This document shows positions 8,984-62,623 of a stretch of 64,000 bases of DNA, piece by piece. Position 1 is the first letter of the stretch. The number at the start of each line of letters is the position of its first letter. The stretch lies in assembly GCF_003991155.1 (NCBI RefSeq), contig NZ_CP031293.1. One strand, given 5' to 3'. Below the pieces are notes generated by a model. That model had not been told where the DNA came from and searched no databases. It was given only the letters and a program-made list of their open reading frames with translations. This DNA comes from Escherichia coli. Lineage in GTDB: Bacteria > Pseudomonadota > Gammaproteobacteria > Enterobacterales > Enterobacteriaceae. The position numbers and the translations under genes are program-made.

Positions 8984-11942
8984 CCTTAATCGCGTCATCG
9001 GATGGTCTGGTTTACTGCTGACGTCTTTATTGAGTACCAGCGCACTCGCAGACAATATCGGCACCAGCGCAGAAGAGCTGGGGCTGAGCGATTATCGCCA
9101 TTTCGTTATTTATCCCCGTCTCGACAAGGCGCTGAAGGCACAGAAAAATAACGACGAAGCAACCGCCATCCGCGAATTTGAATATATACACCAACAGGTG
9201 CCGGATAATATTCCACTAACTTTATACCTTGCGGAAGCCTATCGCCATTTTGGTCATGATGACCGGGCGCGGCTGTTGCTTGAGGATCAACTGAAACGTC
9301 ACCCAGGAGATGCCCGACTTGAGCGCAGTCTGGCGGCTATTCCAGTTGAAGTGAAAAGCGTTACGACTGTTGAAGAACTGCTGGCCCAGCAAAAAGCGTG
9401 CGATGCTGCGCCGACCCTGCGTTGTCGCAGTGAAGTTGGGCAGAATGCCCTGCGGCTGGCACAATTACCTGTCGCCAGAGCGCAACTGAACGATGCGACG
9501 TTTGCTGCATCGCCGGAAGGAAAAACGCTGCGAACCGATCTGCTGCAACGGGCAATCTACCTGAAACAATGGTCCCAGGCAGATACGCTATACAATGAAG
9601 CACGCCAGCAGAACACATTAAGCGCGGCAGAACGCCGCCAGTGGTTTGATGTGCTTCTTGCCGGGCAGCTGGACGATCGGATCCTGGCGCTGCAATCACA
9701 GGGGATCTTCACCGATCCTCAGTCATATATTACTTACGCGACCGCGCTGGCTTATCGTGGCGAAAAAGCACGCCTCCAGCGTTATCTCATTGAAAATAAG
9801 CCGCTGTTTACCACGGACGCACAAGAGAAAAGTTGGCTCTATCTGATATCTAAATACAGCGCCAACCCCGTTCAGGCGTTGGCGAATTATACGGTACAGT
9901 TTGCCGATAACCGCCAGTATGTTGTTGGCGCGACGCTACCGGTGCTGTTAAAAGAAGGTCAGTACGACGCAGCGCAAAAACTGCTCGCCACCCTCCCCGC
10001 CAATGAAATGCTTGAGGAGCGTTATACCGTTAGCGTAGCGACCCATAACAAGGCTGAAGCTCTGCGTCTGGCACGATTGCTGTATCAGCAAGAACCGGCA
10101 AATCTTACCCGCCTGGATCAACTGACCTGGCAACTGATGCAGAACGAGCAGTCACGCGAAGCTGCCGATTTATTGCTGCAACGCTATCCTTTCCAGGGCG
10201 ATGCGCGTGTCAGCCAGACGTTAATGGCGCGACTGGCGTCTCTGCTGGAAAGTCATCCTTACCTGGCAACGCCGGCGAAGGTGGCGATTTTATCGAAACC
10301 CTTACCGCTGGCGGAGCAACGTCAGTGGCAAAGTCAGTTGCCGGGTATTGCAGATAATTGCCCGGCTATAGTTCGCTTGCTGGGCGATATGTCGCCTTCC
10401 TACGATGCCGCCGCCTGGAACCGTCTGGCAAAGTGTTATCGGGACACGCTACCCGGTGTGGCGTTGTATGCATGGCTTCAGGCCGAACAACGACAACCGA
10501 ACGCCTGGCAACATCGTGCGGTAGCCTATCAGGCGTATCAGGTTGAGGACTACGCCACCGCACTGGCGGCCTGGCAGAAAATCAGTCTTCACGACATGAG
10601 CAATGAGGATCTGCTTGCTGCTGCCAATACCGCCCAGGCGGCAGGAAATGGTGCGGCTCGCGATCGCTGGCTTCAGCAGGCAGAACAACGTGGGCTGGGA
10701 AACAATGCCCTCTACTGGTGGCTGCATGCGCAACGTTACATTCCTGGTCAGCCGGAACTCGCACTGAACGATCTCACGCGCTCAATCAATATTGCGCCTT
10801 CTGCCAACGCTTACGTTGCGCGGGCGACAATTTATCGCCAACGTCATAATGTCCCGGCGGCGGTGAGTGATTTGCGCGCCGCGCTGGAACTGGAACCGAA
10901 TAATAGCAACACCCAGGCAGCGCTCGGTTACGCCTTGTGGGATAGCGGTGATATCGCACAGTCGCGGGAAATGCTCGAACAGGCGCATAAAGGGCTACCG
11001 GACGATCCGGCACTTATCCGACAACTGGCCTACGTGAACCAGCGTCTGGATGACATGCCTGCGACGCAGCACTACGCCCGGCTGGTGATTGATGACATTG
11101 ATAATCAGGCGCTGATAACCCCACTGACCCCAGAGCAAAATCAGCAACGCTTCAATTTCCGCCGTCTGCATGAGGAGGTCGGTCGCCGCTGGACGTTCAG
11201 TTTCGATTCTTCTATCGGCTTGCGTTCCGGCGCAATGAGTACCGCTAACAATAATGTCGGCGGCGCAGCGCCAGGGAAAAGCTATCGTAGCTACGGGCAA
11301 CTGGAAGCCGAGTACCGCATCGGACGCAATATGCTGCTGGAAGGCGACCTGCTCTCGGTTTACAGCCGTGTATTTGCCGATACCGGTGAAAACGGGGTGA
11401 TGATGCCGGTGAAAAATCCGATGTCCGGCACCGGTCTGCGCTGGAAGCCGCTGCGCGATCAGATCTTTTTCCTCGCCGTCGAACAGCAGTTGCCGCTGAA
11501 CGGCCAAAATGGCGCATCCGATACCATGCTGCGCGCCAGCGCCTCATTCTTTAATGGCGGCAAATACAGCGACGAATGGCACCCGAACGGTTCAGGCTGG
11601 TTTGCCCAAAACCTGTACCTCGATGCGGCGCAATATGTCCGCCAGGATATTCAGGCGTGGACGGCAGATTATCGCGTCAGCTGGCATCAGAAGGTGGCTA
11701 ACGGACAGACTATTGAGCCTTACGCTCACGTTCAGGACAACGGCTATCGTGATAAAGGCACTCAGGGCGCGCAGCTTGGCGGAGTCGGGGTCCGCTGGAA
11801 TATCTGGACCGGCGAGACGCACTACGACGCCTGGCCGCACAAAGTCAGTCTCGGCGTCGAGTATCAACATACCTTTAAGGCGATTAATCAACGTAACGGA
11901 GAGCGCAACAACGCGTTTCTCACCATTGGAGTGCACTGGTAA
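8970..11942 (+). CDS. nfrA: NfrA outer-membrane protein (phage N4 receptor, TPR plus barrel)
   Basis: Start trimmed to MKENNLNRVIGWSGLLLTSLLSTSALA (signal peptide), giving 990 aa. The C-terminus ends in the beta-barrel-like FLTIGVHW. Confidence 0.9.
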   Translation: MKENNLNRVIGWSGLLLTSLLSTSALADNIGTSAEELGLSDYRHFVIYPRLDKALKAQKNNDEATAIREFEYIHQQVPDNIPLTLYLAEAYRHFGHDDRARLLLEDQLKRHPGDARLERSLAAIPVEVKSVTTVEELLAQQKACDAAPTLRCRSEVGQNALRLAQLPVARAQLNDATFAASPEGKTLRTDLLQRAIYLKQWSQADTLYNEARQQNTLSAAERRQWFDVLLAGQLDDRILALQSQGIFTDPQSYITYATALAYRGEKARLQRYLIENKPLFTTDAQEKSWLYLISKYSANPVQALANYTVQFADNRQYVVGATLPVLLKEGQYDAAQKLLATLPANEMLEERYTVSVATHNKAEALRLARLLYQQEPANLTRLDQLTWQLMQNEQSREAADLLLQRYPFQGDARVSQTLMARLASLLESHPYLATPAKVAILSKPLPLAEQRQWQSQLPGIADNCPAIVRLLGDMSPSYDAAAWNRLAKCYRDTLPGVALYAWLQAEQRQPNAWQHRAVAYQAYQVEDYATALAAWQKISLHDMSNEDLLAAANTAQAAGNGAARDRWLQQAEQRGLGNNALYWWLHAQRYIPGQPELALNDLTRSINIAPSANAYVARATIYRQRHNVPAAVSDLRAALELEPNNSNTQAALGYALWDSGDIAQSREMLEQAHKGLPDDPALIRQLAYVNQRLDDMPATQHYARLVIDDIDNQALITPLTPEQNQQRFNFRRLHEEVGRRWTFSFDSSIGLRSGAMSTANNNVGGAAPGKSYRSYGQLEAEYRIGRNMLLEGDLLSVYSRVFADTGENGVMMPVKNPMSGTGLRWKPLRDQIFFLAVEQQLPLNGQNGASDTMLRASASFFNGGKYSDEWHPNGSGWFAQNLYLDAAQYVRQDIQAWTADYRVSWHQKVANGQTIEPYAHVQDNGYRDKGTQGAQLGGVGVRWNIWTGETHYDAWPHKVSLGVEYQHTFKAINQRNGERNNAFLTIGVHW

Positions 11943-12833
11943 ATGCGTAAGTTCATTTTCGTATTGCTGACACTGCTTTTGGTCAGCCCTTTTTCCTTTG
12001 CGATGAAAGGTATTATCTGGCAACCACAAAACCGTGATAGTCAGGTTACCGATACCCAGTGGCAGGGGCTGATGAGTCAGTTACGTTTGCAAGGCTTCGA
12101 TACCCTGGTTTTGCAATGGACTCGTTACGGCGATGCATTCACCCAGCCAGAACAGCGCGCGTTATTGTTTAAGCGTGCCGCAGCTGCGCAACAGGCTGGC
12201 CTGAAGCTGATTGTCGGGCTGAATGCCGATCCGGAATTTTTTATGCACCAGAAACAGTCGTCTGCAGCGCTGGAAAGCTATCTTAACCGCCTGCTGGCTG
12301 CCGATCTCCAGCAAGCCAGATTATGGAGCGCCGTACCTGGCGTAACGCCGGATGGCTGGTACATCAGCGCGGAAATTGACGACCTGAACTGGCGCAGCGA
12401 AGCCGCCCGTCAGCCTTTGCTAACATGGTTAAACAACGCGCAGCGGTTGATTAGCGATGTTTCAGCAAAACCGGTTTATATCAGTAGTTTTTTCGCCGGA
12501 AACATGTCGCCCGATGGCTATCGCCAACTGCTGGAACACGTTAAAGCAACCGGCGTTAATGTCTGGGTACAGGATGGCAGCGGCGTGGATAAACTGACCG
12601 CTGAACAGCGTGAACGTTATCTACAGGCCAGCGCCGATTGCCAAAGCTCCGCCCCAGCAAGCGGCATTGTTTATGAACTGTTTGTCGCCGGCAAAGGCAA
12701 AACCTTTACAGCGAAACCGAAACCGGACGCAGAAATTGCCTCGCTGTTAGCGAAACGTTCCTCTTGCGGTAAAGACACGCTCTATTTCTCTCTGCGCTAT
12801 TTGCCCGTCGCGCACGGCATTCTCGAGTATTAA
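11943..12833 (+). CDS. ybcH: YbcH, secreted protein of the nfr locus
   Basis: 296 aa with signal peptide MRKFIFVLLTLLLVSPFSFA. The start abuts the nfrA stop (TAA-ATG). Confidence 0.85.
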   Translation: MRKFIFVLLTLLLVSPFSFAMKGIIWQPQNRDSQVTDTQWQGLMSQLRLQGFDTLVLQWTRYGDAFTQPEQRALLFKRAAAAQQAGLKLIVGLNADPEFFMHQKQSSAALESYLNRLLAADLQQARLWSAVPGVTPDGWYISAEIDDLNWRSEAARQPLLTWLNNAQRLISDVSAKPVYISSFFAGNMSPDGYRQLLEHVKATGVNVWVQDGSGVDKLTAEQRERYLQASADCQSSAPASGIVYELFVAGKGKTFTAKPKPDAEIASLLAKRSSCGKDTLYFSLRYLPVAHGILEY

Positions 12834-13015
12834 ATCTCCTCCAGGTAAGTCGGGTACGACCTGGCTTACCTCTTTCGCTCTCGTCAGAATTCCATCAAGA
12901 TTAATTGCTAAAAAGCGTGCTAAAGAAAGAAGATCGTTATCGGCGAACGGGCCGATCACTCATGCAGGAAGCATAGATCCTTTGAGCGGAGTTTCTGATA
13001 TCTGAGGAGTGCGAA

Positions 13016-13777
13016 ATGCAATTGAGCAGCAGTGAACCTTGCGTGGTGATCCTGACCGAAAAAGAGGTAGAGGTAAGCGTCAATAACCATGCTACGTTTA
13101 CCCTTCCGAAAAACTACCTGGCCGCCTTCGCGTGCAACAATAACGTCATTGAACTCTCAACGTTAAATCACGTATTAATCACCCACATCAACCGTAACAT
13201 CATCAACGATTATCTGTTGTTTTTAAATAAGAACTTAACCTGTATAAAGCCCTGGTCGCGGCTGGCAACCCCGGTTATCGCTTGTCATAGCCGTACACCG
13301 GAAGTGTTCCGGCTAGCCGCCAACCACAGCAAGCAGCAACCCAGCAAACCCTGCGAAGCGGAGTTGACGCGCGCATTGCTTTTTACCGTATTGTCTAACT
13401 TTCTTGAGCAATCGCGGTTTATTGCCCTACTGATGTATATCTTACGCAGCAGCGTCCGCGACAGCGTCTGCCGCATTATTCAAAGCGATATTCAGCATTA
13501 CTGGAATCTGCGAATTGTCGCCAGTTCGCTATGTTTAAGCCCCAGCCTGCTCAAAAAGAAATTAAAAAACGAAAATACCAGCTATAGCCAGATTGTCACA
13601 GAGTGTCGTATGCGTTACGCCGTACAGATGTTATTGATGGATAACAAAAATATCACTCAGGTAGCGCAATTATGTGGCTATAGCAGCACGTCGTACTTTA
13701 TCTCTGTTTTTAAGGCGTTTTACGGCCTGACACCGTTGAATTATCTCGCCAAACAGCGACAAAAAGTGATGTGGTGA
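13016..13777 (+). CDS. envY: EnvY AraC-family porin thermoregulator
   Basis: 253 aa. C-terminal AraC HTH (ITQVAQLCGYSSTSYFISVFKAFYGLTP). Sits between ybcH and ompT, as in K-12. Confidence 0.9.
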   Translation: MQLSSSEPCVVILTEKEVEVSVNNHATFTLPKNYLAAFACNNNVIELSTLNHVLITHINRNIINDYLLFLNKNLTCIKPWSRLATPVIACHSRTPEVFRLAANHSKQQPSKPCEAELTRALLFTVLSNFLEQSRFIALLMYILRSSVRDSVCRIIQSDIQHYWNLRIVASSLCLSPSLLKKKLKNENTSYSQIVTECRMRYAVQMLLMDNKNITQVAQLCGYSSTSYFISVFKAFYGLTPLNYLAKQRQKVMW

Positions 13778-13820
13778 AGGGCAAAGCGGAAACGGATAAG
13801 ACGGGGATAAATGAAGAAGA

Positions 13821-13867
13821 AATGGCGCGCCCTGCAGGATTCGAACCTGCGGCCCACGACTTAGAAG
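13821..13867. repeat. att repeat (distal copy): duplicated 3' end of argU
   Basis: AATGGCGCGCCCTGCAGGATTCGAACCTGCGGCCCACGACTTAGAAG is identical to 62545-62591. Identity ends at the next base (T versus G). Confidence 0.9.
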
Positions 13868-14289
13868 TTCCTAGAACGACATTTTAAGTCAACAACTTAC
13901 CGCGCCATCTCTGCGCTCACACGTCCCACTACCTCAAAACATGTAAAGCCTTGCAAGCCATTGTGAGGCCTTATGTGTCTCAGTTTTGTCCCTCTTTTTT
14001 GTACCAAAAAACATAGCAATTGAGGATAAACCTCATGCTATTTTCGCTTATATGCCTCTAAAGGCATGGCGCTTAAATAGATAAAAACACCACAAAAGCA
14101 TAAAAAACCACACAGTAAAACCGCAACATAAAACAATAACAGATAATTAAACCAAAAACAGATAGCGCATTGTGATAATCATTCAATACTAAACAAAATA
14201 TAAACAGTGGAGCAATATGTAATTGACTCATTAAGTTAGATATAAAAAATACATATTCAATCATTAAAACGATTGAATGGAGAACTTTT

Positions 14290-15243
14290 ATGCGGGCGAA
14301 ACTTCTGGGAATAGTCCTGACAACCCCTATTGCGATCAGCTCTTTTGCTTCTACCGAGACTATATCGTTTACTCCTGACAACATAAATGCGGGCATTAGT
14401 CTTGGAACTCTGAGCGGAAAAACAAAAGAGCGCGTTTATCTAGCTGAAGAAGGAGGCCGAAAAGTCAGTCAACTCGACTGGAAATTCAATAACGCTGCAA
14501 TTATTAAAGGTGCAATTAATTGGGATTTGATGCCCCAGATATCTATTGGGGCTGCGGGCTGGACTACTCTCGGCAGCCGAGGTGGCAATATGGTCGATCA
14601 GGACTGGATGGATTCCAGTAACCCCGGAACCTGGACAGATGAAAGTAGGCACCCTGATACACAACTCAATTATGCCAACGAATTTGATCTGAATATCAAA
14701 GGCTGGCTCCTCAACGAACCCAATTACCGCCTGGGACTCATGGCCGGATATCAGGAAAGCCGTTATAGCTTTACAGCCAGAGGTGGTTCCTATATCTACA
14801 GTTCTGAGGAGGGATTCAGAGATGATATCGGCTCCTTCCCGAATGGAGAAAGAGCAATCGGCTACAAACAACGTTTTAAAATGCCCTACATTGGCTTGAC
14901 TGGAAGTTATCGTTATGAAGATTTTGAGCTAGGTGGCACATTTAAATACAGCGGCTGGGTGGAAGCATCTGATAACGATGAGCACTATGACCCAGGAAAA
15001 AGAATCACTTATCGCAGTAAAGTCAAAGACCAAAATTACTATTCTGTTGCAGTCAATGCAGGTTATTACGTAACACCTAACGCAAAAGTTTATGTTGAAG
15101 GCGCATGGAATCGGGTTACGAATAAAAAAGGTAATACTTCACTTTATGATCACAATGATAACACTTCAGACTACAGCAAAAATGGTGCAGGCATAGAAAA
15201 CTATAACTTCATCACTACTGCTGGTCTTAAGTACACCTTTTAA
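14290..15243 (+). CDS. ompT: OmpT outer-membrane aspartyl (omptin) protease
   Basis: 317 aa, MRAKLLGIVLTTPIAISSFA...TTAGLKYTF. Lies inside the att repeats. Confidence 0.95.
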   Translation: MRAKLLGIVLTTPIAISSFASTETISFTPDNINAGISLGTLSGKTKERVYLAEEGGRKVSQLDWKFNNAAIIKGAINWDLMPQISIGAAGWTTLGSRGGNMVDQDWMDSSNPGTWTDESRHPDTQLNYANEFDLNIKGWLLNEPNYRLGLMAGYQESRYSFTARGGSYIYSSEEGFRDDIGSFPNGERAIGYKQRFKMPYIGLTGSYRYEDFELGGTFKYSGWVEASDNDEHYDPGKRITYRSKVKDQNYYSVAVNAGYYVTPNAKVYVEGAWNRVTNKKGNTSLYDHNDNTSDYSKNGAGIENYNFITTAGLKYTF

Positions 15244-15263
15244 CGAAGTTAACCAGATTTTCT

Positions 15264-15299
15264 CCCCGGTGGTATTGTATAACCCCGGGGAATTTGTTT
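15264..15299 (+). terminator. Putative ompT terminator hairpin
   Basis: CCCCGG...CCGGGG stem followed by AATTTGTTT, 20 nt after the ompT stop. Confidence 0.45.
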
Positions 15300-15429
15300 A
15301 CAGTTACAAGTAGACAATATCCACTAATTTTGTAAGCATTTAACCTATGTCATAACGTGTAATCTCTTACCGCAACACAAGACCTCAATATATTCAAATC
15401 TTATCTTTATTCCGATATTCAGAGACACA

Positions 15430-16914
15430 ATGCGAAAAATAATTACTCATTTCAAAGTTGTTTTAACGTTACTTCTACCAGTAACCGTATCTGCCCAGCA
15501 GATACAGTGGCAATCCTGTATGGCCAGTCAATTCAACCACTGGTTTGGTGAGGAAAAACCGTCTCCTGACTTACTATGTGGTTATTTGTCTGTTCCATTA
15601 AAATATACAGACACAGGCGGAGATGCTTCTTATGAAAAAAAATCACAAGTCAAACTAGCGTTGACAAAATTGCCGGCAAAAAGCAAGCATAAAGGAAGTA
15701 TCCTGATAATAAGTGGTGGTCCCGGGTTACCAGGCATAAATCCTTATATTAACTTTGACTGGCCAGTCACAAATCTTCGTGAGTCATGGGATATTATTGG
15801 ATTTGATCCTCGAGGCGTCGGACAGTCCACTCCGACAATAAACTGCCGGCAATCAGATACAGAGACTCAGGAAAACATAACCGAAAAGCAACAAGTATTA
15901 AATAAAATTAATGCCTGTATCCATAATACCGGAGCCGAAGTCATTCGCCATATCGGCTCTAACGAGGCTGTATACGATATTGATCGTATTAGGCAAGCCT
16001 TGGGGGATAAACAACTGACAGCCGTGGCGTATTCGTATGGAACTCAAATTGCAGCCTTATATGCAGAACGTTTTCCCTACAACGTAAGATCTATCGTTCT
16101 TGATGGAGTCGTCGATATCGATGACCTGGAGGACAACTTCACATGGCAACTCAAACAGGCACAGAGTTATCAGGAAACGTTTGATCGCTTTGCATCCTGG
16201 TGTGCGCGTACAAAAAGTTGCCCGCTTTCTTCAGACAGAGATAAGGCAATAACTCAGTTCCATGAGCTATTATCAAAATTACATCACAAACCTTTATTAG
16301 ACAGTAAGGGAGAAAATATATCTTCAGATGAACTCATATCATTAACAACAGACCTTCTGCTATGGCGTTCATCATGGCCAACCCTTGCAACTGCCATACG
16401 CCAGTTCTCTCAGGGGATTGTCAGTAATGAAATTGAAACTGCGCTCAGTGCTCCGATAGCCTCAGAAGAGTCAAGCGATGCTTCGGGGGTAATCCTCTGT
16501 GTAGATCAGGGGGATGAGCAATTAACACCAGAAGAGCGAAAATCCCGAAAAGACGCTCTTGCGAATGCCTTCCCGGCTATTAACTTTGACAATGGACGTT
16601 CCGATTCACCTGATTTTTGTGAATTATGGCCAATACATAGCGACCTGAACAAAACTCGCCTGAAAAATACTGTTCTGCCCTCTGGTTTACTGTTTGTAGC
16701 ACACAAATACGACCCAACAACGCCCTGGATTAATGCCCGTAAGATGGCAGAGAAATTTTCCAGCCCGTTACTAACAATAAATGGTGATGGGCATACATTA
16801 GCTCTCACCGGAGTTAATTTATGTGTAGATAAAGCAGTTGTACATCACCTGATCACTCCACAAAAAATAGAAAATATATACTGCCCAGGAAATTCTGAAG
16901 CAGAAATACAATAA
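15430..16914 (+). CDS. Secreted alpha/beta-hydrolase, S33 tripeptidyl-aminopeptidase (TAP)-like
   Basis: 494 aa with signal peptide ending VSAQQ. Contains GGPGLPG and DPRGVGQS, nucleophile elbow AYSYGTQ, and C-terminal NGDGHT. AT-rich. Confidence 0.7.
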   Translation: MRKIITHFKVVLTLLLPVTVSAQQIQWQSCMASQFNHWFGEEKPSPDLLCGYLSVPLKYTDTGGDASYEKKSQVKLALTKLPAKSKHKGSILIISGGPGLPGINPYINFDWPVTNLRESWDIIGFDPRGVGQSTPTINCRQSDTETQENITEKQQVLNKINACIHNTGAEVIRHIGSNEAVYDIDRIRQALGDKQLTAVAYSYGTQIAALYAERFPYNVRSIVLDGVVDIDDLEDNFTWQLKQAQSYQETFDRFASWCARTKSCPLSSDRDKAITQFHELLSKLHHKPLLDSKGENISSDELISLTTDLLLWRSSWPTLATAIRQFSQGIVSNEIETALSAPIASEESSDASGVILCVDQGDEQLTPEERKSRKDALANAFPAINFDNGRSDSPDFCELWPIHSDLNKTRLKNTVLPSGLLFVAHKYDPTTPWINARKMAEKFSSPLLTINGDGHTLALTGVNLCVDKAVVHHLITPQKIENIYCPGNSEAEIQ

Positions 16915-16935
16915 TTTCAAAATATTCCGCTATTT

Positions 16936-16985
16936 GCTCCCAATGCAAAACATATATTGCATTGGGAGCATATTCATATTTTTGT
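16936..16985 (+). terminator. Rho-independent terminator after the hydrolase gene
   Basis: 13-bp perfect stem GCTCCCAATGCAA/TTGCATTGGGAGC (16936-16969), followed by a T-rich tract. Confidence 0.6.
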
Positions 16986-17180
16986 TATTCTTGTATGAAA
17001 TCGTCTCATGTACACGGTCCTTTTTTCGCCGAAAACTGATATTACTTTAATCAAAAGTTGACGTGCCAGATTCGAAGTAAATTTATAAAATATCAAATCA
17101 ATATACATTTTGCACCTTCGAGATAGTAATTGCTGTTACTGTAACATGAGTTACAAACAGCTTCATACCCAGAGCTACTG

Positions 17181-17396
17181 ATGTATCAACACGATTCAAC
17201 AATACCCGATATTTATTCCATGCCTCCAGCAACGATCTTTCTTCCTCCGTTGCGATTTCCCAGCATCCTGCAGTGGCGCAATATACTCACTGAATTCCTG
17301 GATGTAGAACTGTGTGGTGACGGTCTTCCAGCCATTCGGCTCCTGCTGTATCGAAGCATACCAGGCTATTTCAATATCGCTATGCTGCGGCAGCAT
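17181..17396 (-). pseudogene. Tail-fibre assembly (tfa) remnant, frameshifted (tfaX-like)
   Basis: Reads MLPQHSDIEIAWYAS...PLQDAG. The Tfa C-terminal motif [27 protein letters not shown] continues in another frame. Homology stops at about 17181. Confidence 0.7.
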
Positions 17397-17452
17397 TTAA
17401 CCCCTTGTAATTCATCGCCATAATTGATTTAATTCACAAATAAAACTATAAC

Positions 17453-18121
17453 ATGGTGAAATTAATGAAAAAAAACACAGATGATGGGGCTAAAATTTAC
17501 ACACCACTTACCCTAAAGCTTTATGACTGGTGGGTTTTGGGAGTATCAAATCGGCTTGCATGGGGATGTCCTACAAAGGAACACCTTCTTCCACACTTTC
17601 TGGAACATTTAGGTAACAACCATCTGGATATTGGTGTTGGAACTGGGTTTTACCTTACTCACGTACCTGAGAGCAGTCTGATATCTTTAATGGATTTGAA
17701 CGAAGCTAGCCTGAACGCGGCATCTACAAGGGCTGGGGAATCAAAAATTAAACATAAAATTAGCCATGATGTTTTTGAACCTTATCCCGCGGCGTTACAT
17801 GGTCAATTTGATTCCATTTCCATGTTTTACCTTCTTCACTGCCTGCCTGGAAATATATCTACAAAAAGCTGTGTAATACGCAATGCGGCGCAGGCCTTAA
17901 CTGACGATGGAACTCTATACGGAGCCACAATTCTTGGCGATGGAGTTGTGCACAATAGCTTCGGTCAAAAACTGATGCGCATTTACAATCAGAAAGGCAT
18001 CTTTTCAAACACAAAAGATTCCGAAGAAGGCTTAACACATATACTCTCAGAGCATTTCGAGAATGTTAAAACCAAGGTTCAAGGTACTGTAGTAATGTTT
18101 TCCGCTTCAGGGAAAAAATAG
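17453..18121 (+). CDS. ybcY: SAM-dependent methyltransferase (YbcY-like)
   Basis: 222 aa with class-I MTase motif HLDIGVGTGFY. Sits between two tfa fragments, as ybcY does in DLP12. Confidence 0.7.
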   Translation: MVKLMKKNTDDGAKIYTPLTLKLYDWWVLGVSNRLAWGCPTKEHLLPHFLEHLGNNHLDIGVGTGFYLTHVPESSLISLMDLNEASLNAASTRAGESKIKHKISHDVFEPYPAALHGQFDSISMFYLLHCLPGNISTKSCVIRNAAQALTDDGTLYGATILGDGVVHNSFGQKLMRIYNQKGIFSNTKDSEEGLTHILSEHFENVKTKVQGTVVMFSASGKK

Positions 18122-18128
18122 CATCCAA

Positions 18129-18161
18129 CCGCAGCACGTTCTTGCTTAAGACGTGCTGCGG
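18129..18161. terminator. 11-bp perfect hairpin between the convergent ybcY-like gene and tfa fragment
   Basis: CCGCAGCACGT-11 nt-ACGTGCTGCGG. No clear T-run on either side. Confidence 0.4.
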
Positions 18162-18175
18162 CATAATCCCAATGA

Positions 18176-18304
18176 TTACTCCCTGACAGGGTTCGTAGGC
18201 CACTCAATATCAGGTGCAGTTGATGTATCAACACGGTTCAGCAACACCCGATACTTCTTCCAGGCTTCCAGCAACGAGGTTTCTTCCTCCGTTGCATATA
18301 CAGC
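18176..18304 (-). pseudogene. C-terminal tfa fragment without a start codon
   Basis: Reverse frame reads [42 protein letters not shown]-stop. There is an in-frame stop immediately upstream at 18305-18307. Confidence 0.75.
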
Positions 18305-19331: not shown

Positions 19332-19613
19332 TCACATCCAGCCACGAAGTTGATGCTCAACAACAACCGCGTATTTATCGAATATTGACGATTTTTTTGC
19401 ATCATTAATGATGCGCACGTTTACAAAATATCCATCTTCCTTAACACATACCGGTTCGCCATCTTCAGTCAGCTCTCCGGTTTCTTTGTACACGTTACCT
19501 ATCACGTCAATAAGAATATCATCCTGCATCGACTCGTCATCATAATAACCAGCACTCTCCATAAAGGTCGAAAAGTCGGCCCTGTCGGCAAATTTGAGTG
19601 TTAAATCTTTCAT
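19332..19613 (-). CDS. 93-aa acidic protein translationally coupled to stf (possible fibre accessory/chaperone)
   Basis: Its ATG overlaps the stf stop (TAATG at 19611-19615). No recognised family. Confidence 0.5.
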   Translation of the reverse strand: MKDLTLKFADRADFSTFMESAGYYDDESMQDDILIDVIGNVYKETGELTEDGEPVCVKEDGYFVNVRIINDAKKSSIFDKYAVVVEHQLRGWM

Positions 19614-21991
19614 TAGATTGACTCCCCCACCTGAGCATCAGTCAATGCCTTGTGCCATATTCTGAAATTCCTGACATGACCAAATAAATGACGTAACCCG
19701 GCTGTAGTCTGGCCTCCAATACGGATAATTGCGGTGTTCTGAATATAGGACCATGTGGTTTTTGTTTCGCTGGATATACGCCCGTTACTTACTGAGCACG
19801 TAGACTGATCTGACTTTACACGCATCCCCATAACCATTTTTTCAAGCAATGCGTTTTCGTTTACCCGTCTGTTAGCTCCTCCAATATCGCAATAAGGAAA
19901 TCCGTCGTAATCTGTTGAATGACCGAAGCCAAGAATAATAGCCGCTCCGGTTTGATGACCGCCGGTATCAAAAACACGCGGTGCTGCATTTGGCGTTTTA
20001 TACCAGTTCTTATGTACCTCACAAAGAACCGTAAAAGGAAGATTATAAAGGTTATTCTTGATTGGGACTGTCACCATATCGCTTGCGCGGGTCGCTGCCG
20101 TCGTTTCTGATATAATAAAAGATGATGCGCAAGGGCCATTTTCAACCTGAGGGGTGGACAGGAAAATATAATCTCCCGATTCAACGACACCACCTTCTTT
20201 TGGTGCGTATTGTATTGCCGAGGTTATGCAGGACTCGTCAATTGCCTGAATCGTTGCCTCTGCAAAAATCCAGCCCGTAACCTCATCCTTGTTAACTCGA
20301 GCAGTGAGCCTGTCGGCAGCTACACCGGTGATTTCAACCGATAAAGACCGCGTATTAACAATGGCATATCCAAGATTAGATGAAGCGCTGCCATCGAAGG
20401 CTTCAAACCTGATCCTTAACCGGAGTTCCAAATCCGTTTTAAATCTGCACGATGTCGTCACACACTTATTATCGCCTGATACATCGACAGCCCCGGTTAC
20501 TGTAACTGACGCCATGTTAACAGGAGAGGTTTTCCCAATCAGAGAATCGTTACAGACAAATTTTCCATAAGTAAAACCAAAACTATCCGTCCCGGTTTCG
20601 GGCACATCCATATTTACCGACTTGCCCCAACTGGCAGGGGTTTCCGAATTGAGCATGTAGTTCGTTCTCTGACCCTCAATAAGCAGGCCATCACGTTCAA
20701 ATCGTGGCTCGTCAATGGCAGCCTCTGTCAGCACACCAGATTTATTAATATAGGTTGCTTTCGATGCGCGTTTAAACTTTACAACCTTATCGCCAGGCAT
20801 CGTTATTTCATCATCACCAATAACAATCTTTTTATATGATGGCGAAAACCCCGTAATCATATCCAGTGAATCGTTAAACGGTATCCACACATCAGGCAGT
20901 GGCTGTAAGACATATTTATACGGCTCTGCTGCCTGACTTGCATACTCTCTGGCTGCGTCTTCACTTGCTTTTGCAGCGGTCTGGCTTGCAGCGGATGCTT
21001 TCGCCGAGTTCGCCGCTGCAGTCTCGCTTGTCTTTGCATTGGTTTCACTGGTTTTTGCTGCTTTTTGACTGTTGGCTGATGCAGTGGCAGAAGCAGCCGC
21101 CGCACTTGCAGAACCAGCTGCGGCACTCTCGCTTTGGGCTGCTGCATCCTGACTGTTTTTCGCCGCAGTTTCGCTGGCTTTAGCATTCGTTTCGCTGGTC
21201 TTCGCTGCCGTCTGGCTGGACTTTGCGTTGGTTTCGCTCGTCTTCGCTGCTTTCTGACTGTTAGCCGCAGCAGTTGCTGATCCAGCTGCTGAAGTCGCAG
21301 AACCGGCTGCTGCGCTCTCGCTTTCAGCTGCTGCAGCCTGGCTGTTTTTCGCCGCAGTTTCACTGGCTTTAGCATTCGTTTCGCTGGTCTTCGCTGCCGT
21401 CTGGCTTGACTTTGCGTTGGTTTCGCTCGTCTTTGCTGCTGTCTCGCTATTTTTCGCGTTGGTTTCTGATTTTTTGGCTGCTGTCGCGGAATTTGCCGAT
21501 GCAGTCTGTGAGGTCGCTGCCGCCTGTGCGCTGTTAGCTGCATTCGTTTCTGAGGTTTTCGCCGCGTTCTTCGATGATGCCGCTGCAGTTTCGGATTTCT
21601 TTGCCGCCGCTGCGCTCTGAGAGGCGGCTTCGGCGTTGCGTGCCACTTCTTCCACCATTGCCTCAAAACGACGCAATGCCTCCGGCATGACATCATCTTC
21701 CGTCATGGCACCGAGAAAATCATTCAGCGTACCTGGTCTGGAGCCTTCATAGACGGTAATGGTCCCAGCATGTGAAGGCGGAAAACCTTCAACCAGCAGG
21801 GTGACGCTGTACTGGCCATACTCAACATCCATGCTGTAACGTCCGGCTTCATCCGGATTTTCAGAAGCCACCGTGTTCACCAGTACCGTGGTGCTGTTAC
21901 GCTTTGCCTTCAGTTGAATAGTGCAGTTCTGTATTGGTTTTCCCGCACCATCTTTCAGCACACCTGAGATTTTTACTGCTGCCATATCCAC
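19613..21991 (-). CDS. stf: Side tail fibre protein (lambda Stf N-terminus, different distal domain)
   Basis: 792 aa. AVKISGVLKDGAGKPIQNCTIQLKAKRNSTTV matches the lambda Stf start. Ala/Ser/Thr fibre repeats follow. The C-terminus ends in the lectin-like NFRIWHKALTDAQV. Confidence 0.85.
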   Translation of the reverse strand: MDMAAVKISGVLKDGAGKPIQNCTIQLKAKRNSTTVLVNTVASENPDEAGRYSMDVEYGQYSVTLLVEGFPPSHAGTITVYEGSRPGTLNDFLGAMTEDDVMPEALRRFEAMVEEVARNAEAASQSAAAAKKSETAAASSKNAAKTSETNAANSAQAAATSQTASANSATAAKKSETNAKNSETAAKTSETNAKSSQTAAKTSETNAKASETAAKNSQAAAAESESAAAGSATSAAGSATAAANSQKAAKTSETNAKSSQTAAKTSETNAKASETAAKNSQDAAAQSESAAAGSASAAAASATASANSQKAAKTSETNAKTSETAAANSAKASAASQTAAKASEDAAREYASQAAEPYKYVLQPLPDVWIPFNDSLDMITGFSPSYKKIVIGDDEITMPGDKVVKFKRASKATYINKSGVLTEAAIDEPRFERDGLLIEGQRTNYMLNSETPASWGKSVNMDVPETGTDSFGFTYGKFVCNDSLIGKTSPVNMASVTVTGAVDVSGDNKCVTTSCRFKTDLELRLRIRFEAFDGSASSNLGYAIVNTRSLSVEITGVAADRLTARVNKDEVTGWIFAEATIQAIDESCITSAIQYAPKEGGVVESGDYIFLSTPQVENGPCASSFIISETTAATRASDMVTVPIKNNLYNLPFTVLCEVHKNWYKTPNAAPRVFDTGGHQTGAAIILGFGHSTDYDGFPYCDIGGANRRVNENALLEKMVMGMRVKSDQSTCSVSNGRISSETKTTWSYIQNTAIIRIGGQTTAGLRHLFGHVRNFRIWHKALTDAQVGESI
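21000..21640. repeat. Intragenic tandem repeats in stf (189-bp period plus shorter AAKTSETNAK-type units)
   Basis: TTTTTCGCCGCAGTTTC(G/A)CTGGCTTTAGCATTCGTTTCGCTGGTCTTCGCTGCCGTCTGGCT recurs at 21156 and 21345. Confidence 0.8.
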
Positions 21992-22716: not shown

Positions 22717-25700
22717 TCAGCTGATACTGATGCCTGCGGTGGCTTTCTTCATCACCACAACCAGCAAATCGCTGATACTTGCTGTGGGATACCAGCCATT
22801 TACCAGCCATGCCGATACAGAAAATTCCAGTGTCATGACACCACTGCCTGCAGGCATATCAATAACACCCGTATATATCAGCGTATTATCCAGAGCCGTT
22901 CGGTTATAAATTTCAGCACCGTTTTTTCGTACTATCAGACGGCATGAGGAGTAGATATCAGTATGATCTTGCTCATGTTTAGCGCCACTGAATGCCACCG
23001 CCGGGATAACAATTTGCCGGTCAAACGGCTGATCGTCATAAACCCTGACGGTAATGGTTCCTGATGGCCACCGCTCCGGTGCACGGGAGTCCCGGGGGAA
23101 AGCTTTGCCCACCGTTTTAACAATATCGCCTTCAATCTGGTTGGCTGACAGTTTTCCCAGAATCCGGCAGTTCTGATTAATCGTGACATTGTTGAGCGTC
23201 CCGGAGTTCGCATTCACGTTACCGCTGATATCGGCATTTTTCGCCGTCAGCCGCCCGTCCGGTGTCAGGGAAAATGCCGGAGGATTACCGCCGCTGGTAA
23301 TGGTGGGAGCCGTCAGGTATTTCAGGAACACTTCGTTCATGAATATCTGATCGCCCTGACCAACAAACATCGGCTTTGTGTTGCCATTCGCAGGATTAAT
23401 CATCGCAATCCTGTCTGCCGCCAGCAGCACCTGACTCTGCATGCCGTCAGGGGTGTTTTCAATACCGGCACCAATACCCGCGATATAAAGGCGTCCGTCC
23501 TGCATCTGCTGCAGCTTCACAGCCCACATGCTGTTCAGGTTATTATTTGTATCAACCTGAACCTTCTGTATCTGCTGGATCGCTGCACTCTGGTCTTCCA
23601 GTTTCTTATTGACGGTCTGCGTGATTTCATTACTGACATCCGTGATGGACGTTCTGATTTCCGCCAGGTCAGGCGCAAGCTGACCGTTATCAATCTGCGT
23701 CCACAACTCCTGAGCCAGATGGGTTTTCCCTATCTCTCCTTTGAAAAAATCCAGATAGCCGGATGCATCATCACTCGGCTGGCCAACAGCCTCCACGAAT
23801 GCCGATTTGCCAACGGTGTTCACACTGCGGATGTAAAAATAATAATCATGGCCCGGCCTGATATTGATACTGGCAGCTATCCAGTACAGCGCCGTGCCAA
23901 GATAGCGCGCTGTGGTTTCAACCTGTCTGATATCCGCAATCCGCTTTTCCGAGAACCAGAACTCAAACTGTACCGTCGGGTCATAAACGGCAAGATGCGG
24001 CGTGGCGGTGATCTGAAAATAGCCCGGCGTCAGCTCAATCTGTGACGGCGCTGCCGGTGCGGCAATCCGGAACGATACCGATGCAGGATCGCCCTGCTGT
24101 CCCCACGCATTTACCGCCCGGACTGTCAGCCTGTAGTTCCCCAGCGCCAGTTGCGTGAAGCGGTATGTGGTTTCCGCCGTCCGGGCCGTGCTGACCAGCC
24201 GCTCACTGCCGTCATCCGCTGCCACGGTCAGGCGAAGCATGAAACTCACGCCCTTCACCACCTTCGGCGTGTCCCAGCGGGCCAGTACCTGATACTCCCC
24301 GCTGTCTGCGGTGACTTCGGCAGTCAGGTGCTGCACCGCTGGCGGCGTGACACCATTCACCGTGCCGCTCTGGTCGCCGTCAAAGTGCGCCCCGTTATCC
24401 ACGATGGCTTCTTTTTCCGGTACATGCTGCACGGCGGTGATGGCATACGTGCCGTCGTCGTTCTCACGGATACTCACGCAGCGGAACAGGCGCTGGCGCA
24501 GCGTCGGCAGCTTCAGCCCCCACACGCTGTATTCGGCTATCCCGTCAGGAAACCGGCTCACTTTCACCTTCACGCCGTCGGTGACGGACTGGACTTCCAC
24601 GCTGACCGGATTGCCCTGCCCGTCAACCAGGCTTATCAGCGTGGTACCGGAGGATGGCAGCGTGATTTCACGGTCGAGCGTCAGCGTCCGGGTCTGGCTG
24701 TTCACCGCCAGCACGCGCCCGCCAATGCTGATCCCCGCATAGTCATCATCGCAGATTTCAATAACATCACCCGGTACATGGCGAAGCCCTTCTGCGCCGA
24801 CGCTGAAATCCACGGTCTGCGTTTCCAGCAGTTCTGTTTTAATCAGCCACAGCCCGGCGCGGTGTGCCTGCCCCCGGCTGGTACAGCCAAAGGCATCCAT
24901 CTTCGTGACGTTACGACCGTAACGGGCAATGGCCTGCGTGTCCTCCACAAGCTCTGTCGCCGTCTCCCAGCCGTTATTCGGGTCAATCCAGTTCACCTCA
25001 ACGGCATTATGACGGTCCTTCAGGGCGCTGAAGCTGTAGCGGAACGGCGCGCCATCATCCGGCATCACCACATTACTACGGTTATAGGTCCACACCTTAT
25101 CCGATGGCCGGTCCTGCACGAACGTCAGCGTCTGCCCGTTCCATACCGGCATACAGCGCATCGCCGAGCAGAAATCACTGAGCACATCCCACGCCTTGCG
25201 CTGCGTGGTCAGCCAGGCATTACAGGTGATGCGCGGCTCCGTGCCACCAAAGCCATCCGGCACCGACTGGTCGCAATTCTGGCCGATGACATACAGCGCC
25301 CATTTGTCCACATCCGCCGCACCGAGACGCTTCCCCATGCCGTAGCGCGGATGGGTCAGCATATCCCACAGACACCAGGCCATGTTGTTGCTGTATGCCG
25401 GTTTAAACGTCCCGTCCCAGATACCGCTGTATTGCCGCGTCTGCGGGTTATAGTTCGACGGCACCTGCAGAATACGCCCGCGCAGATGATAATTACGGCT
25501 CACCTGCTGGCTGCCGAACTGCTCCGAGTCCACCTGCACGCCGACCAGTGCCGTGTTCGGGTAGCACTGTTTCACATCGATGATTTCGGTGTATGACGAC
25601 CAGAGCGTTTTGTTCTGCAGCTGGTCTGTGGTGCTGTCCGGCGTCATCCTGCGCATCCGGATATTAAACGGGCGCGGCGGCAGGTTATCCACCACCACTG

Positions 25701-26196
25701 AGGCCAGATACTGCGAGGTGGTTTTACCCTTAATGGTGATGTCTTTTTCCGTCACCCAGCCACCGTTACGTTGTATCTGAACCAGCAGGCGGACTTCCGA
25801 TGGATTCCTGTCCCCCTTTGAGGTGGTTTCCACCAGTGCCTGCACACCGAAGGTAAAGCGCAGACGGTCGATGTTTGCCGACGTGATGGTGCGGGTGATC
25901 GGCGTGTCATATTTCACTTCCGTACCCAGCACCGTCTCGGAACCGGAGGATTCAAATCCCTCCGGCGGAGTCTGCTCCTGCTCACCGGCCCGGAACACCA
26001 CCGTGACGCCGGATATATTGGTATTCCCCTCACTGTCCAGCACCGGCGTACTGTTCAGCAGCACGCTTTTTAATCCATCCACCGGACCTTCAACCGGCCC
26101 TTCGCTGATGGCATCGATCACACTCAGCAGCTGCGTGGACTTCAGGTTGTCCTTCGCTTCGCGCGGGGTATGCCCCTTACTGCTGCCTTTACCCAT
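22717..26196 (-). CDS. J: Tail tip/host-specificity protein J
   Basis: 1159 aa, [22 protein letters not shown]...[21 protein letters not shown]. Collinear with lambda J. Confidence 0.95.
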
Positions 26197-26256
26197 TCGT
26201 CATGCTCCATAAACGATAAAACCGCCCGGAGGCGGTTTCACATAAAACGTTTTTCA

Positions 26257-26898
26257 TCAGCGACCAATCACCACAACCTGACCACCATCACCTTCATCTG
26301 CTGTGCTGATCTCCTGAGATACCACACGTGATCCCACGCGCATTTCACCGTACAGAACGGGCAGAACATTGCCCTGGGCAACCATATTATCCAGTGAAGA
26401 AAAATAGGTGTTCTGTTTGCCGTTATCCGTTGTCTGTGTGCGGGGGGTTTTGGGTTTAGGGGCCAGCATCTGTGCAACACCGCCAAGCGTCATACTGGCA
26501 CCGAGAGAAAACAGCAGATTACTCGCCATAATTCCTACCCCCGGCATCCATATAGCAACCGCCATAACAGCCGCCCCCAGCACAGCCTGAAACACACCGC
26601 CACTTTTGGCTCCTGCCAGACGCGGCACGATATGGATCACAGCACCATTTGCCAGCGGTTCATTAAGACGGGCTGATAATTCCGTTTCACCTGTATCACG
26701 CCCGGCAATCCGTACCTGATACCAGCCGTCGCTCAGTTTCTGACGAAACGCCGGGAGCTGTGTGGCCAGCGCCCGGATGGCTTCAGCCCCCGTTTTCACA
26801 CGAAGGTCGATGCGGCGACCAAATCGTTGTAAATCCCCGTAAAGGCAGATGCGCGCCATGCCCGGTGACGCCAGAGGGAGTGTGTGCGTCGCTGCCAT
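26257..26898 (-). CDS. I: Tail assembly protein I
   Basis: 213 aa, MAATHTLPLASPGMARICLYGDLQRF...DGGQVVVIGR. Overlaps the K end by 103 nt, as in lambda. Confidence 0.9.
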   Translation of the reverse strand: MAATHTLPLASPGMARICLYGDLQRFGRRIDLRVKTGAEAIRALATQLPAFRQKLSDGWYQVRIAGRDTGETELSARLNEPLANGAVIHIVPRLAGAKSGGVFQAVLGAAVMAVAIWMPGVGIMASNLLFSLGASMTLGGVAQMLAPKPKTPRTQTTDNGKQNTYFSSLDNMVAQGNVLPVLYGEMRVGSRVVSQEISTADEGDGGQVVVIGR

Positions 26899-41657: not shown

Positions 41658-41669
41658 AGGTCGCCGCCC
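41658..41669. other. cosN cohesive-end site (within the cos region, ~41500-41760)
   Basis: AGGTCGCCGCCC is the complement of the lambda 12-nt cohesive end GGGCGGCGACCT. Flanking sequence reads like lambda cosB and cosQ. Confidence 0.9.
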
Positions 41670-62544: not shown

Positions 62545-62591
62545 AATGGCGCGCCCTGCAGGATTCGAACCTGCGGCCCACGACTTAGAAG
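62545..62591. repeat. att repeat (int-proximal copy) overlapping the 3' part of argU
   Basis: Identical 47-mer to 13821-13867. Confidence 0.9.
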
Positions 62592-62623
62592 GTCGTTGCT
62601 CTATCCAACTGAGCTAAGGGCGC
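62547..62623 (-). tRNA. argU: tRNA-Arg (anticodon UCU)
   Basis: The reverse complement reads GCGCCCTTAGCTCAGTTGGATAGAGCAACGACCTTCTAAGTCGTGGGCCGCAGGTTCGAATCCTGCAGGGCGCGCCA, 77 nt, with CT-TCT-AA in the anticodon loop. Confidence 0.97.

Follow-up and report, generated by a model that had tools for sequence, protein, structure and literature searches.

A TAP/Hip1-type serine hydrolase carried beside omptin genes on phages and F-type plasmids of Escherichia coli: probably exported and peptide-acting

Hip1 of Mycobacterium tuberculosis (Rv2224c, also named CaeA; PDB 5ugq, 7sfm, 8e5w) is at once an endoprotease, an esterase and a tripeptide-releasing enzyme (PMC4022732). It hydrolyses azocasein, the p-nitroanilides (pNA) Ala-Pro-Ala-pNA as well as Gly-Pro-Leu-pNA, and p-nitrophenyl (pNP) butyrate, and cleaves a GroEL2 peptide after residue 3 and after Arg12 (PMC4022732). 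Its catalytic triad is Ser228, Asp463 and His490, with Ser228 located within a YSYGT motif, and five disulfides are predicted among its 11 cysteines (PMC4022732). A second group comprises Tap, SlpD and SlpE of Streptomyces lividans (S33 TAP subfamily, PF08386), which are extracytoplasmic. In the 64,000-nucleotide stretch of Escherichia coli DNA analyzed here (contig NZ_CP031293.1 of assembly GCF_003991155.1; “the window”), the gene directly following ompT encodes a homologue of these enzymes. With moderate confidence, it is interpreted as a Sec-exported, disulfide-rich serine hydrolase (~52.5 kDa) of the TAP/Hip1 type of S33, which is carried as phage and plasmid cargo and probably acts on peptides.

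The gene is an intact open reading frame (ORF) of 494 codons with an ATG start in the ORF listing of the window. RefSeq names its product only “alpha/beta hydrolase,” and the PHROG family that contains it, 20134, is labeled “unknown function.” The original prediction, made from the letters alone, described a 494-residue ORF with a signal peptide and four motifs, and all of these are present: GGPGLPG at residue 96, DPRGVGQS at 126, AYSYGT at 200 and GDGHT at 452, the signal features being recognized heuristically. The gene and the elements on which its classification depends are:

15430..16914, + strand: coding sequence of the TAP/Hip1-type S33 alpha/beta-hydrolase (RefSeq WP_001226375.1; orthologue of O157 Sakai ECs_1662)
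15430..15495, + strand: putative signal peptide, residues 1-22, with predicted cleavage between VSA and QQ (hydropathy profile, -3/-1 rule)
16033..16035, + strand: codon of the nucleophile Ser202 in the motif A-Y-S-Y-G, invariant and aligned with Hip1 YSYGT
16711..16713, + strand: codon of Asp428 in the motif D-P-T-T-P, invariant and aligned with Hip1 HDPATP
16792..16794, + strand: codon of His455 in the motif G-D-G-H-T, invariant and aligned with Hip1 GTQHT

Fold, triad, C-terminal domain and export features all place the protein in the TAP/Hip1 branch of MEROPS S33, as far as sequence and structural model can do so. Pfam recognizes Abhydrolase_1 (PF00561, 3e-33) and the TAP-like domain Abhydrolase_4 (PF08386) over residues 386-479, at 54.2 bits against a cut-off of 21. 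The best sequence match among solved structures is Hip1, at E 3.5e-51 over residues 21-475, and the homology extends over the full length. The AlphaFold2 (AF2) model of the hydrolase has a mean predicted local distance difference test (pLDDT) score of 90.8 and a predicted template-modeling score (pTM) of 0.90. A Foldseek search with this model returns Hip1 entries as the top six matches (template-modeling score, TM, 0.75-0.82; E 1e-30 to 1e-34), in agreement with a shared two-domain fold (TM ~0.8). The next matches are the enediyne-pathway proteins TnmK1 and TnmK2, and the prolyl aminopeptidases follow only at a distance (TM ~0.35). An alignment of 64 homologues, reaching down to 27% identity, keeps Ser202, Asp428, His455, the GPG of the oxyanion-loop motif and Thr431 invariant. 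Six of the ten cysteines are invariant in the same alignment and four nearly so, and 9 of the 10 align with cysteines of Hip1.

The likeness to Hip1 thus includes the Ser-Asp-His triad, the conserved Thr following the Asp, the nine aligned cysteines and export to the cell envelope. Judged by motif position, which is the basis of the residue-by-residue match of the triads, Asp428 and His455 would be equivalent to Hip1 Asp463 and His490, and the region of Thr431 to the residue mutated in PDB 5uoh (T466A). The differences are also clear. Identity is only 27-28%, so that the hydrolase is a homologue and not an orthologue; Hip1 is envelope-associated in the mycobacterial wall, whereas the E. coli protein belongs to a Gram-negative host and bears a soluble-type signal. 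The elbow is GYSYG in Hip1 and AYSYG here. Hip1 is encoded by a core chromosomal virulence gene, whereas the hydrolase is phage and plasmid cargo, and the Hip1 substrate, secreted or cleaved GroEL2, has no obvious E. coli equivalent. Tap, SlpD and SlpE share with the hydrolase the TAP-like C-terminal domain, the extracytoplasmic site and the order of the triad, a likeness drawn from the Pfam model and from published statements on Hip1 and TPP A/B/C (PMC4022732) and not from direct comparison. SlpD and SlpE are associated with the mycelium (PMC4022732), whereas the E. coli protein lacks a lipobox.

A tripeptidyl-aminopeptidase type with a Ser-Asp-His triad had been proposed at the outset, and the PF08386 and Hip1 matches, together with the invariant triad, bear this out. 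The proline-iminopeptidase type named alongside it does not hold. Against TIGR01249, the NCBIfam model of prolyl aminopeptidase, the protein scores 35.8 bits over residues 167-263 only, far under the equivalog cut-off of 259.75, and this identity was rejected. The proline iminopeptidases (PDB 1qtr, 1azw) share the alpha/beta-hydrolase core and the nucleophile region, but they are cytoplasmic proteins of ~310 residues in which the large lid, the cysteines and the TAP C-terminal domain are all missing, and the ~0.35 given above is their query-normalized TM.

The N-terminus reads MRKIITHFKVVLTLLLPVTVSA followed by QQ. It contains a basic n-region (MRK), a hydrophobic core (VVLTLLLPVTV, with an 11-residue Kyte-Doolittle maximum of 2.64) and a V-S-A cleavage motif. 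The call is heuristic, relying on hydropathy and the -3/-1 rule, and it indicates a classical Sec-type signal of the signal-peptidase-I type. The junction TVSA-Q(Q/R)I(E/Q)WQSC, with the hyphen at the predicted cut, is kept in the paralogues. A lipobox cysteine was looked for in the N-terminus and none was found. Since the putative signal is of the signal-peptidase-I type without a lipobox, the protein is most likely periplasmic rather than secreted; the earlier suggestion of a periplasmic or secreted enzyme is thus supported in its first half, as a prediction, and unsupported as regards passage beyond the outer membrane. The conserved cysteines that align with those of Hip1, with its five predicted disulfides, fit an oxidizing, extracytoplasmic compartment. 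In the record of the temperate phage 2G7b (coding sequence 25071-26465), as in the PHROG 20134 profile, the protein begins at Met31 and the signal peptide is thereby dropped. This start was rejected: the upstream 30 residues are conserved in the paralogues, and Cys30 aligns with a Hip1 cysteine. The conservation of residues 19-30, including Cys30, favors the longer form of 494 residues.

The proposed catalytic arrangement is a Ser202-Asp428-His455 triad on an alpha/beta-hydrolase core that a large helical lid covers. If the enzyme behaves like Hip1 and the tripeptidyl aminopeptidases of Streptomyces, its most likely substrates would be peptides or the N-termini of unfolded proteins, from which the enzyme would release N-terminal tripeptides, possibly with limited internal cuts. 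The term “exopeptidase” in the original prediction is not established, Hip1 as the closest characterized relative being also an endoprotease and an esterase (PMC4022732). The hydrolase offers a tractable Gram-negative model for the Hip1/TAP family, whose physiological substrates are poorly known and whose mycobacterial member is a drug target.

The gene lies within a prophage, whose boundaries and cargo end comprise the following features:

13821..13867, strand not assigned: 47-bp attachment (att) core that repeats the 3' end of argU, at the ompT-proximal prophage end (exact match to 62545-62591)
62545..62623, - strand: argU tRNA-Arg(tct) with the second att core at the integrase-proximal prophage end (ARAGORN, tRNA 62547-62623; exact repeat; homology to the int side of 2G7b)
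14290..15243, + strand: ompT, omptin outer-membrane protease of 317 residues (Pfam Omptin, E 3.7e-130; RefSeq OmpT)
15294..17173, + strand: 1,880-bp cassette of the hydrolase and its flanks, in the place of K-12 appY (breakpoints from blastn against MG1655)

The cus genes, nfrB, nfrA, ybcH and envY precede the att core; ompT and the hydrolase follow it, then fragments of tail-fibre-assembly and DinI genes, a class I methyltransferase, lambdoid tail genes, the remaining prophage and argU. The att core copy at 13821-13867 makes ompT and the hydrolase the first genes of the prophage, and the placement inside the att repeats given in the original prediction is correct. This segment of the window is 100% identical to many RefSeq chromosomes. 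The prophage is closely related to the isolated temperate phage 2G7b (genus Nesevirus), of which 74% is covered at 92-99.7% identity, and the homology ends exactly at the ompT-proximal att core. The order in the phage is tail fibres, methyltransferase, hydrolase, OmpT, attP and int. The hydrolase occurs in 11 phage records at a protein identity of at least 99.6%. Since it is found in isolated-phage genomes between the tail-fibre genes and attP, it is genuine phage cargo packaged in virions and not just prophage-adjacent DNA, in agreement with the earlier view of prophage cargo beside ompT. By position it is lysogenic-conversion cargo, lying in the non-essential region that separates the tail-fibre genes from attP in a lambda-like phage integrating at argU.

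The position is the one occupied by appY in K-12, as had been proposed. Segments 12801-15293 and 17174-18295 align to K-12 MG1655 at 97-98%, and the cassette between them replaces an appY cassette of 1,529 bp. The slot in the K-12 prophage DLP12, between the ompT terminator and the tfaX/ybcY remnants, is identical, but appY encodes an unrelated AraC-family regulator, so that the two cassettes are alternative cargo and not homologues. The GC content of the hydrolase gene is 0.423 (0.352 at third codon positions, GC3), whereas the whole window stands at 0.50 and the flanking core genes at 0.53. The description “strongly AT-rich” is therefore right in direction and slightly overstated in degree, with ompT (0.437) and the methyltransferase (0.41) being similar.

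The survey of linkage to ompT covered 5,426 complete E. coli genomes, queried with ompT plus the hydrolase. A match is found in 3,110 genomes and the two genes are contiguous in 1,220; the hydrolase is present over at least 80% of its length in 1,229, so that ~99% of its copies adjoin ompT. The pair is held by ~39% of the ompT-positive genomes. In O157:H7 Sakai, the block is intact at a different chromosomal place, with ECs_1662 (“hydrolase”) adjoining ompT (ECs_1663) at the end of prophage Sp8. On plasmids, 156 of the 186 that match carry ompP followed directly by a paralogous hydrolase, including the classic F plasmid (NC_002483, WP_072145210.1). This paralogue shares 76% identity and the same omptin-then-hydrolase order, and is equally uncharacterized. 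It differs in being plasmid-borne, in its spacer of 92 bp (p1303 copy) without a separate upstream region, and in a stronger Shine-Dalgarno sequence. Of the plasmids listed with ompP and the paralogue, most derive from samples of cattle, sheep and goats. Additional diverged pairs occur on one ColV-like plasmid and three other contig types. Over six diverged pairs, order and orientation are constant, the spacers measure 92-188 bp, omptin identity is 69-90%, and each hydrolase has the full triad and at least 10 cysteines. Pairwise identities of omptin and hydrolase correlate at a Pearson r of 0.86 over 15 comparisons, which are not independent.

As judged from these comparisons, omptin and hydrolase form a long-lived two-gene block that is specific to E. 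coli and has been inherited on phages, remnants of prophages and F-type plasmids. The co-occurrence with ompT anticipated by the original prediction accordingly holds from the side of the hydrolase and for the six diverged pairs, but not from the side of ompT, and it is missing in all four distant homologue contexts examined; the genomic basis of the pairing is nevertheless stronger than could be known from the letters alone. Such linkage is compatible with cooperation, but common descent of a small mobile unit accounts for it just as well.

The selection analysis supports a working gene. The hydrolase is functional and under purifying selection, as indicated by a ratio of non-synonymous to synonymous substitution rates (dN/dS) of 0.12-0.14 (four comparisons, dS up to 1.1), by the retention of at least 80% of the gene in 1,229 of the 1,253 genomes with a match, and by its transcription in O157 Sakai. 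There, ECs1662 drops by 2.53 log2 units at the transition to stationary phase and shares an expression cluster with ompT (PMC2241611). Three elements around the gene bear on its expression:

~15263..15291, + strand: ompT terminator hairpin CCCCGG...CCGGGG (predicted -18.5 kcal/mol), conserved in the pH22 and F-plasmid pairs
15311..15429, + strand: conserved 5' region with a putative promoter of its own and a weak GAGA Shine-Dalgarno sequence (aligned over the window, pH22 and deer-plasmid copies)
16935..16970, + strand: intrinsic-terminator-like hairpin of the hydrolase (14-bp stem, 7 GC pairs, -24.3 kcal/mol, moderately T-rich tail)

The last of these answers to the terminator noted at first reading, whereas the first separates ompT from the hydrolase. 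We infer that the hydrolase may have its own promoter in 15311-15429, although the conserved 118-bp region is only suggestive; homology to a plasmid of a deer isolate that lacks an omptin starts at 15311. A TGTTTA half site resembling a PhoP box, just after the ompT terminator, was rejected, having been picked by eye without a second half-site.

Several observations weigh against the reading of the hydrolase as an exported, probably peptide-acting enzyme in a conserved block with omptin. Activity in the TAP/Hip1 family is known from non-proteobacterial members only; esterase activity occurs in the family too (Hip1/CaeA), as do biosynthetic enzymes that are not hydrolytic (TnmK1 and TnmK2, the next structural matches); and the first glycine of the GxSxG elbow is replaced by alanine in the hydrolase and its clade. 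As regards expression, a sigma-70 consensus scan upstream of the hydrolase found no site, and the F-plasmid version has only ~40 bp from the ompP terminator to the start codon of the hydrolase, whose expression may depend on read-through from the omptin. As regards linkage, ~61% of the ompT-positive genomes lack the hydrolase. The deer-isolate plasmid NZ_CP166875 carries a hydrolase of 91% identity with its own 118-bp upstream region and no omptin nearby, and no omptin lies within 5-6 kb of the homologues of ~53% identity that occur in Salmonella, Serratia, Budvicia and a metagenomic contig. The linkage could therefore reflect only the shared descent of a small mobile block.

The wider sampling behind these comparisons was threefold. 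Among the matches listed in a family-alignment search of genome contigs, nearly all are from Actinobacteria and three are proteobacterial loci; neighbors in Enterobacterales were compared via exact-protein look-ups; and a tblastn search of 93 fetched loci with OmpT and OmpP found omptins in E. coli loci only. A few goat and sheep plasmids match the hydrolase part alone of the ompP-hydrolase query. The Serratia homologue is on a plasmid and that of Budvicia is chromosomal. The Salmonella homologue (Salmonella enterica contigs) lies beside a Tn7-like module (TniQ, TniB and a Mu-type transposase), with a serralysin-type metalloprotease gene ~5 kb away. On NZ_CP166875, ~1.7 kb from the omptin-less hydrolase, positions 11160-15077 hold a four-gene cluster that forms an unusual lipid-modification set for a plasmid: a bifunctional alpha/beta-hydrolase/methyltransferase, a lysophospholipid acyltransferase, a phosphatidate cytidylyltransferase and a CDP-alcohol phosphatidyltransferase.

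A peptide-acting cargo enzyme remains the preferred reading, and peptidase chemistry itself is what we infer from the family. The alternative that survives best gives omptin and hydrolase a joint task, a coupled two-step proteolysis at the envelope in which OmpT would cut cationic peptides at the outer membrane and the periplasmic hydrolase would trim the resulting fragments, or in which one enzyme processes the other; a two-step unit of this kind was the speculation with which the original prediction closed. The order, orientation and short spacer kept in the six pairs, the correlated divergence, the near-constant adjacency of the E. coli copies to ompT, the joint occurrence with ompP on plasmids and the transfer of the intact block to Sp8 all argue for it, as do purifying selection on both genes and the fall of both transcripts, within one cluster, on entry into stationary phase. 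However, co-divergence is expected from physical linkage alone, and the pairwise values are non-independent; K-12 and most genomes have a functioning ompT but no hydrolase, a terminator lies between the genes, some hydrolase copies have no omptin, and none of the distant homologues examined is omptin-linked. Moreover, a homologue is present in only 2 Shigella and 0 Yersinia plasmid records, which hints that the omptins IcsP and Pla may have no partner of this kind. Coupled proteolysis is thus a tentative proposal and, on balance, unlikely.

The same degree of doubt applies to a broader proposal, that of an unnoticed mobile module of omptin and Hip1-like enzyme, spread by DLP12/2G7b-type phages and F-type plasmids, with a role in antimicrobial-peptide resistance or host colonization. 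As part of that proposal, the hydrolase would cooperate with the omptin or, in the manner of Hip1, process a specific envelope or host-facing protein.

Alternatively, the main activity of the hydrolase might be that of an esterase, lipase or lactonase, directed at a non-peptide substrate of the envelope such as a lipid, an acylated molecule or a lactone. Hip1 was originally named carboxylesterase A and hydrolyzes pNP-butyrate, the structural neighbors TnmK1 and TnmK2 are not peptidases, and the names given to the gene also point in this direction: “putative lactone hydrolase” in the 2G7b record and “pimeloyl-ACP methyl ester carboxylesterase” as the JGI auto-name of homologues. These names, however, are automatic annotation, the nearest characterized sequence relatives (Hip1; Streptomyces Tap, SlpD and SlpE) are peptidases (PMC4022732), and the TAP-like C-terminal domain scores above threshold. 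We consider a mainly esterolytic enzyme improbable.

A service to the phage itself, such as anti-phage defense or superinfection exclusion, is very improbable. It would suit the position of the gene, as cargo of viable temperate phages next to attP, and a full-length PADLOC match exists to C3a206, a “TAP-like protein” (PDLC01094, E 7e-56). However, C3a206 is a type III-D CRISPR accessory candidate with a listed count of 3, described for Nocardiopsis, and the match is at family level only; a defense role by way of C3a206 was rejected on these grounds and with no type III cas module annotated adjacent to the gene. In the identical strain the 34 kb surrounding the hydrolase contain no annotated cas gene, a periplasmic enzyme is unlikely as an effector of cytoplasmic defense, and the gene is on F plasmids too. 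Finally, the view of the hydrolase as decaying, non-functional, hitch-hiking DNA, which would account for its absence from most ompT-positive genomes with appY or nothing in its place, is already effectively refuted by the selection analysis, by the retention and transcription given above, and by the intact ORFs in six lineages with their full triads and cysteines.

Sequencing of the F plasmid and of the O157 genomes already brought the hydrolase into databases, and a search of the literature found no paper that characterizes it or links it to omptins. By O157 locus tag, the search returned only the transcriptome table entry. A gene “ymcE” has been placed 186 bp downstream of ompT in one uropathogenic E. 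coli (UPEC) isolate (PMC6854850). The ompT-hydrolase spacer in the window is exactly 186 bp (15244-15429), and because of this identical spacing “ymcE” is probably the hydrolase under a wrong name. A host-association genome-wide association study linked ompP to cattle, with no mention of the hydrolase in the main text (PMC10088187); such an association would point just as much to the linked hydrolase.

Few bacterial outer-membrane proteases have been studied as well as OmpT and OmpP, which serve as markers in studies of antimicrobial-peptide resistance and host association. OmpT, as an outer-membrane protease, is absent from BL21-type expression strains. Phenotypes and host associations attributed to ompT or ompP could be due in part to the neighboring hydrolase, or be modified by it. 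The one feature that stands out is the omptin-hydrolase block, conserved on both phages and F plasmids, the kind of genetic location being well understood; should the enzyme prove an ordinary periplasmic peptidase unrelated to omptin function, the result would be a routine improvement of annotation.

Downstream of the hydrolase the prophage continues with two further features:

17098..17378, strand not assigned: remnants of two genes, one for tail-fibre assembly and one of the DinI family (RefSeq pseudogenes in the identical strain)
17453..18121, + strand: class I S-adenosylmethionine (SAM)-dependent methyltransferase, the intact form of the K-12 pseudogene ybcY (Pfam methyltransferase domains; PHROG 2132)

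The methyltransferase, whose PHROG is of unknown function, accompanies ompT and the hydrolase in both 2G7b and O157 Sp8, and the cargo block may comprise these three genes. In a third arrangement ompT is followed directly by the methyltransferase, for example in strain MS8345, and the ompT-then-ybcY context is reported for CFT073, UTI89 and other UPEC strains (PMC6854850). Homology to the window persists in MS8345-type strains through 15294-15404, until ~25-30 bp before the start codon of the hydrolase. This arrangement suggests that the hydrolase gene was cleanly deleted and not that it had never been inserted.

The region 13821-62623 is apparently a near-complete lambdoid prophage at argU, with a cos junction near 41669/41670, and looks like the intact counterpart of the cryptic K-12 prophage DLP12. 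At 19613-21991 (- strand) it encodes a tail-fibre protein of 792 residues with long repeats rich in Ala, Ser, Thr and Lys (e.g., SETNAK.S.TAAKT), a tract that gives an extreme AT skew of -0.59 around 21000-21500. In strain 2016C-3878, the coding sequence matching this tail fibre is annotated as broken fragments.

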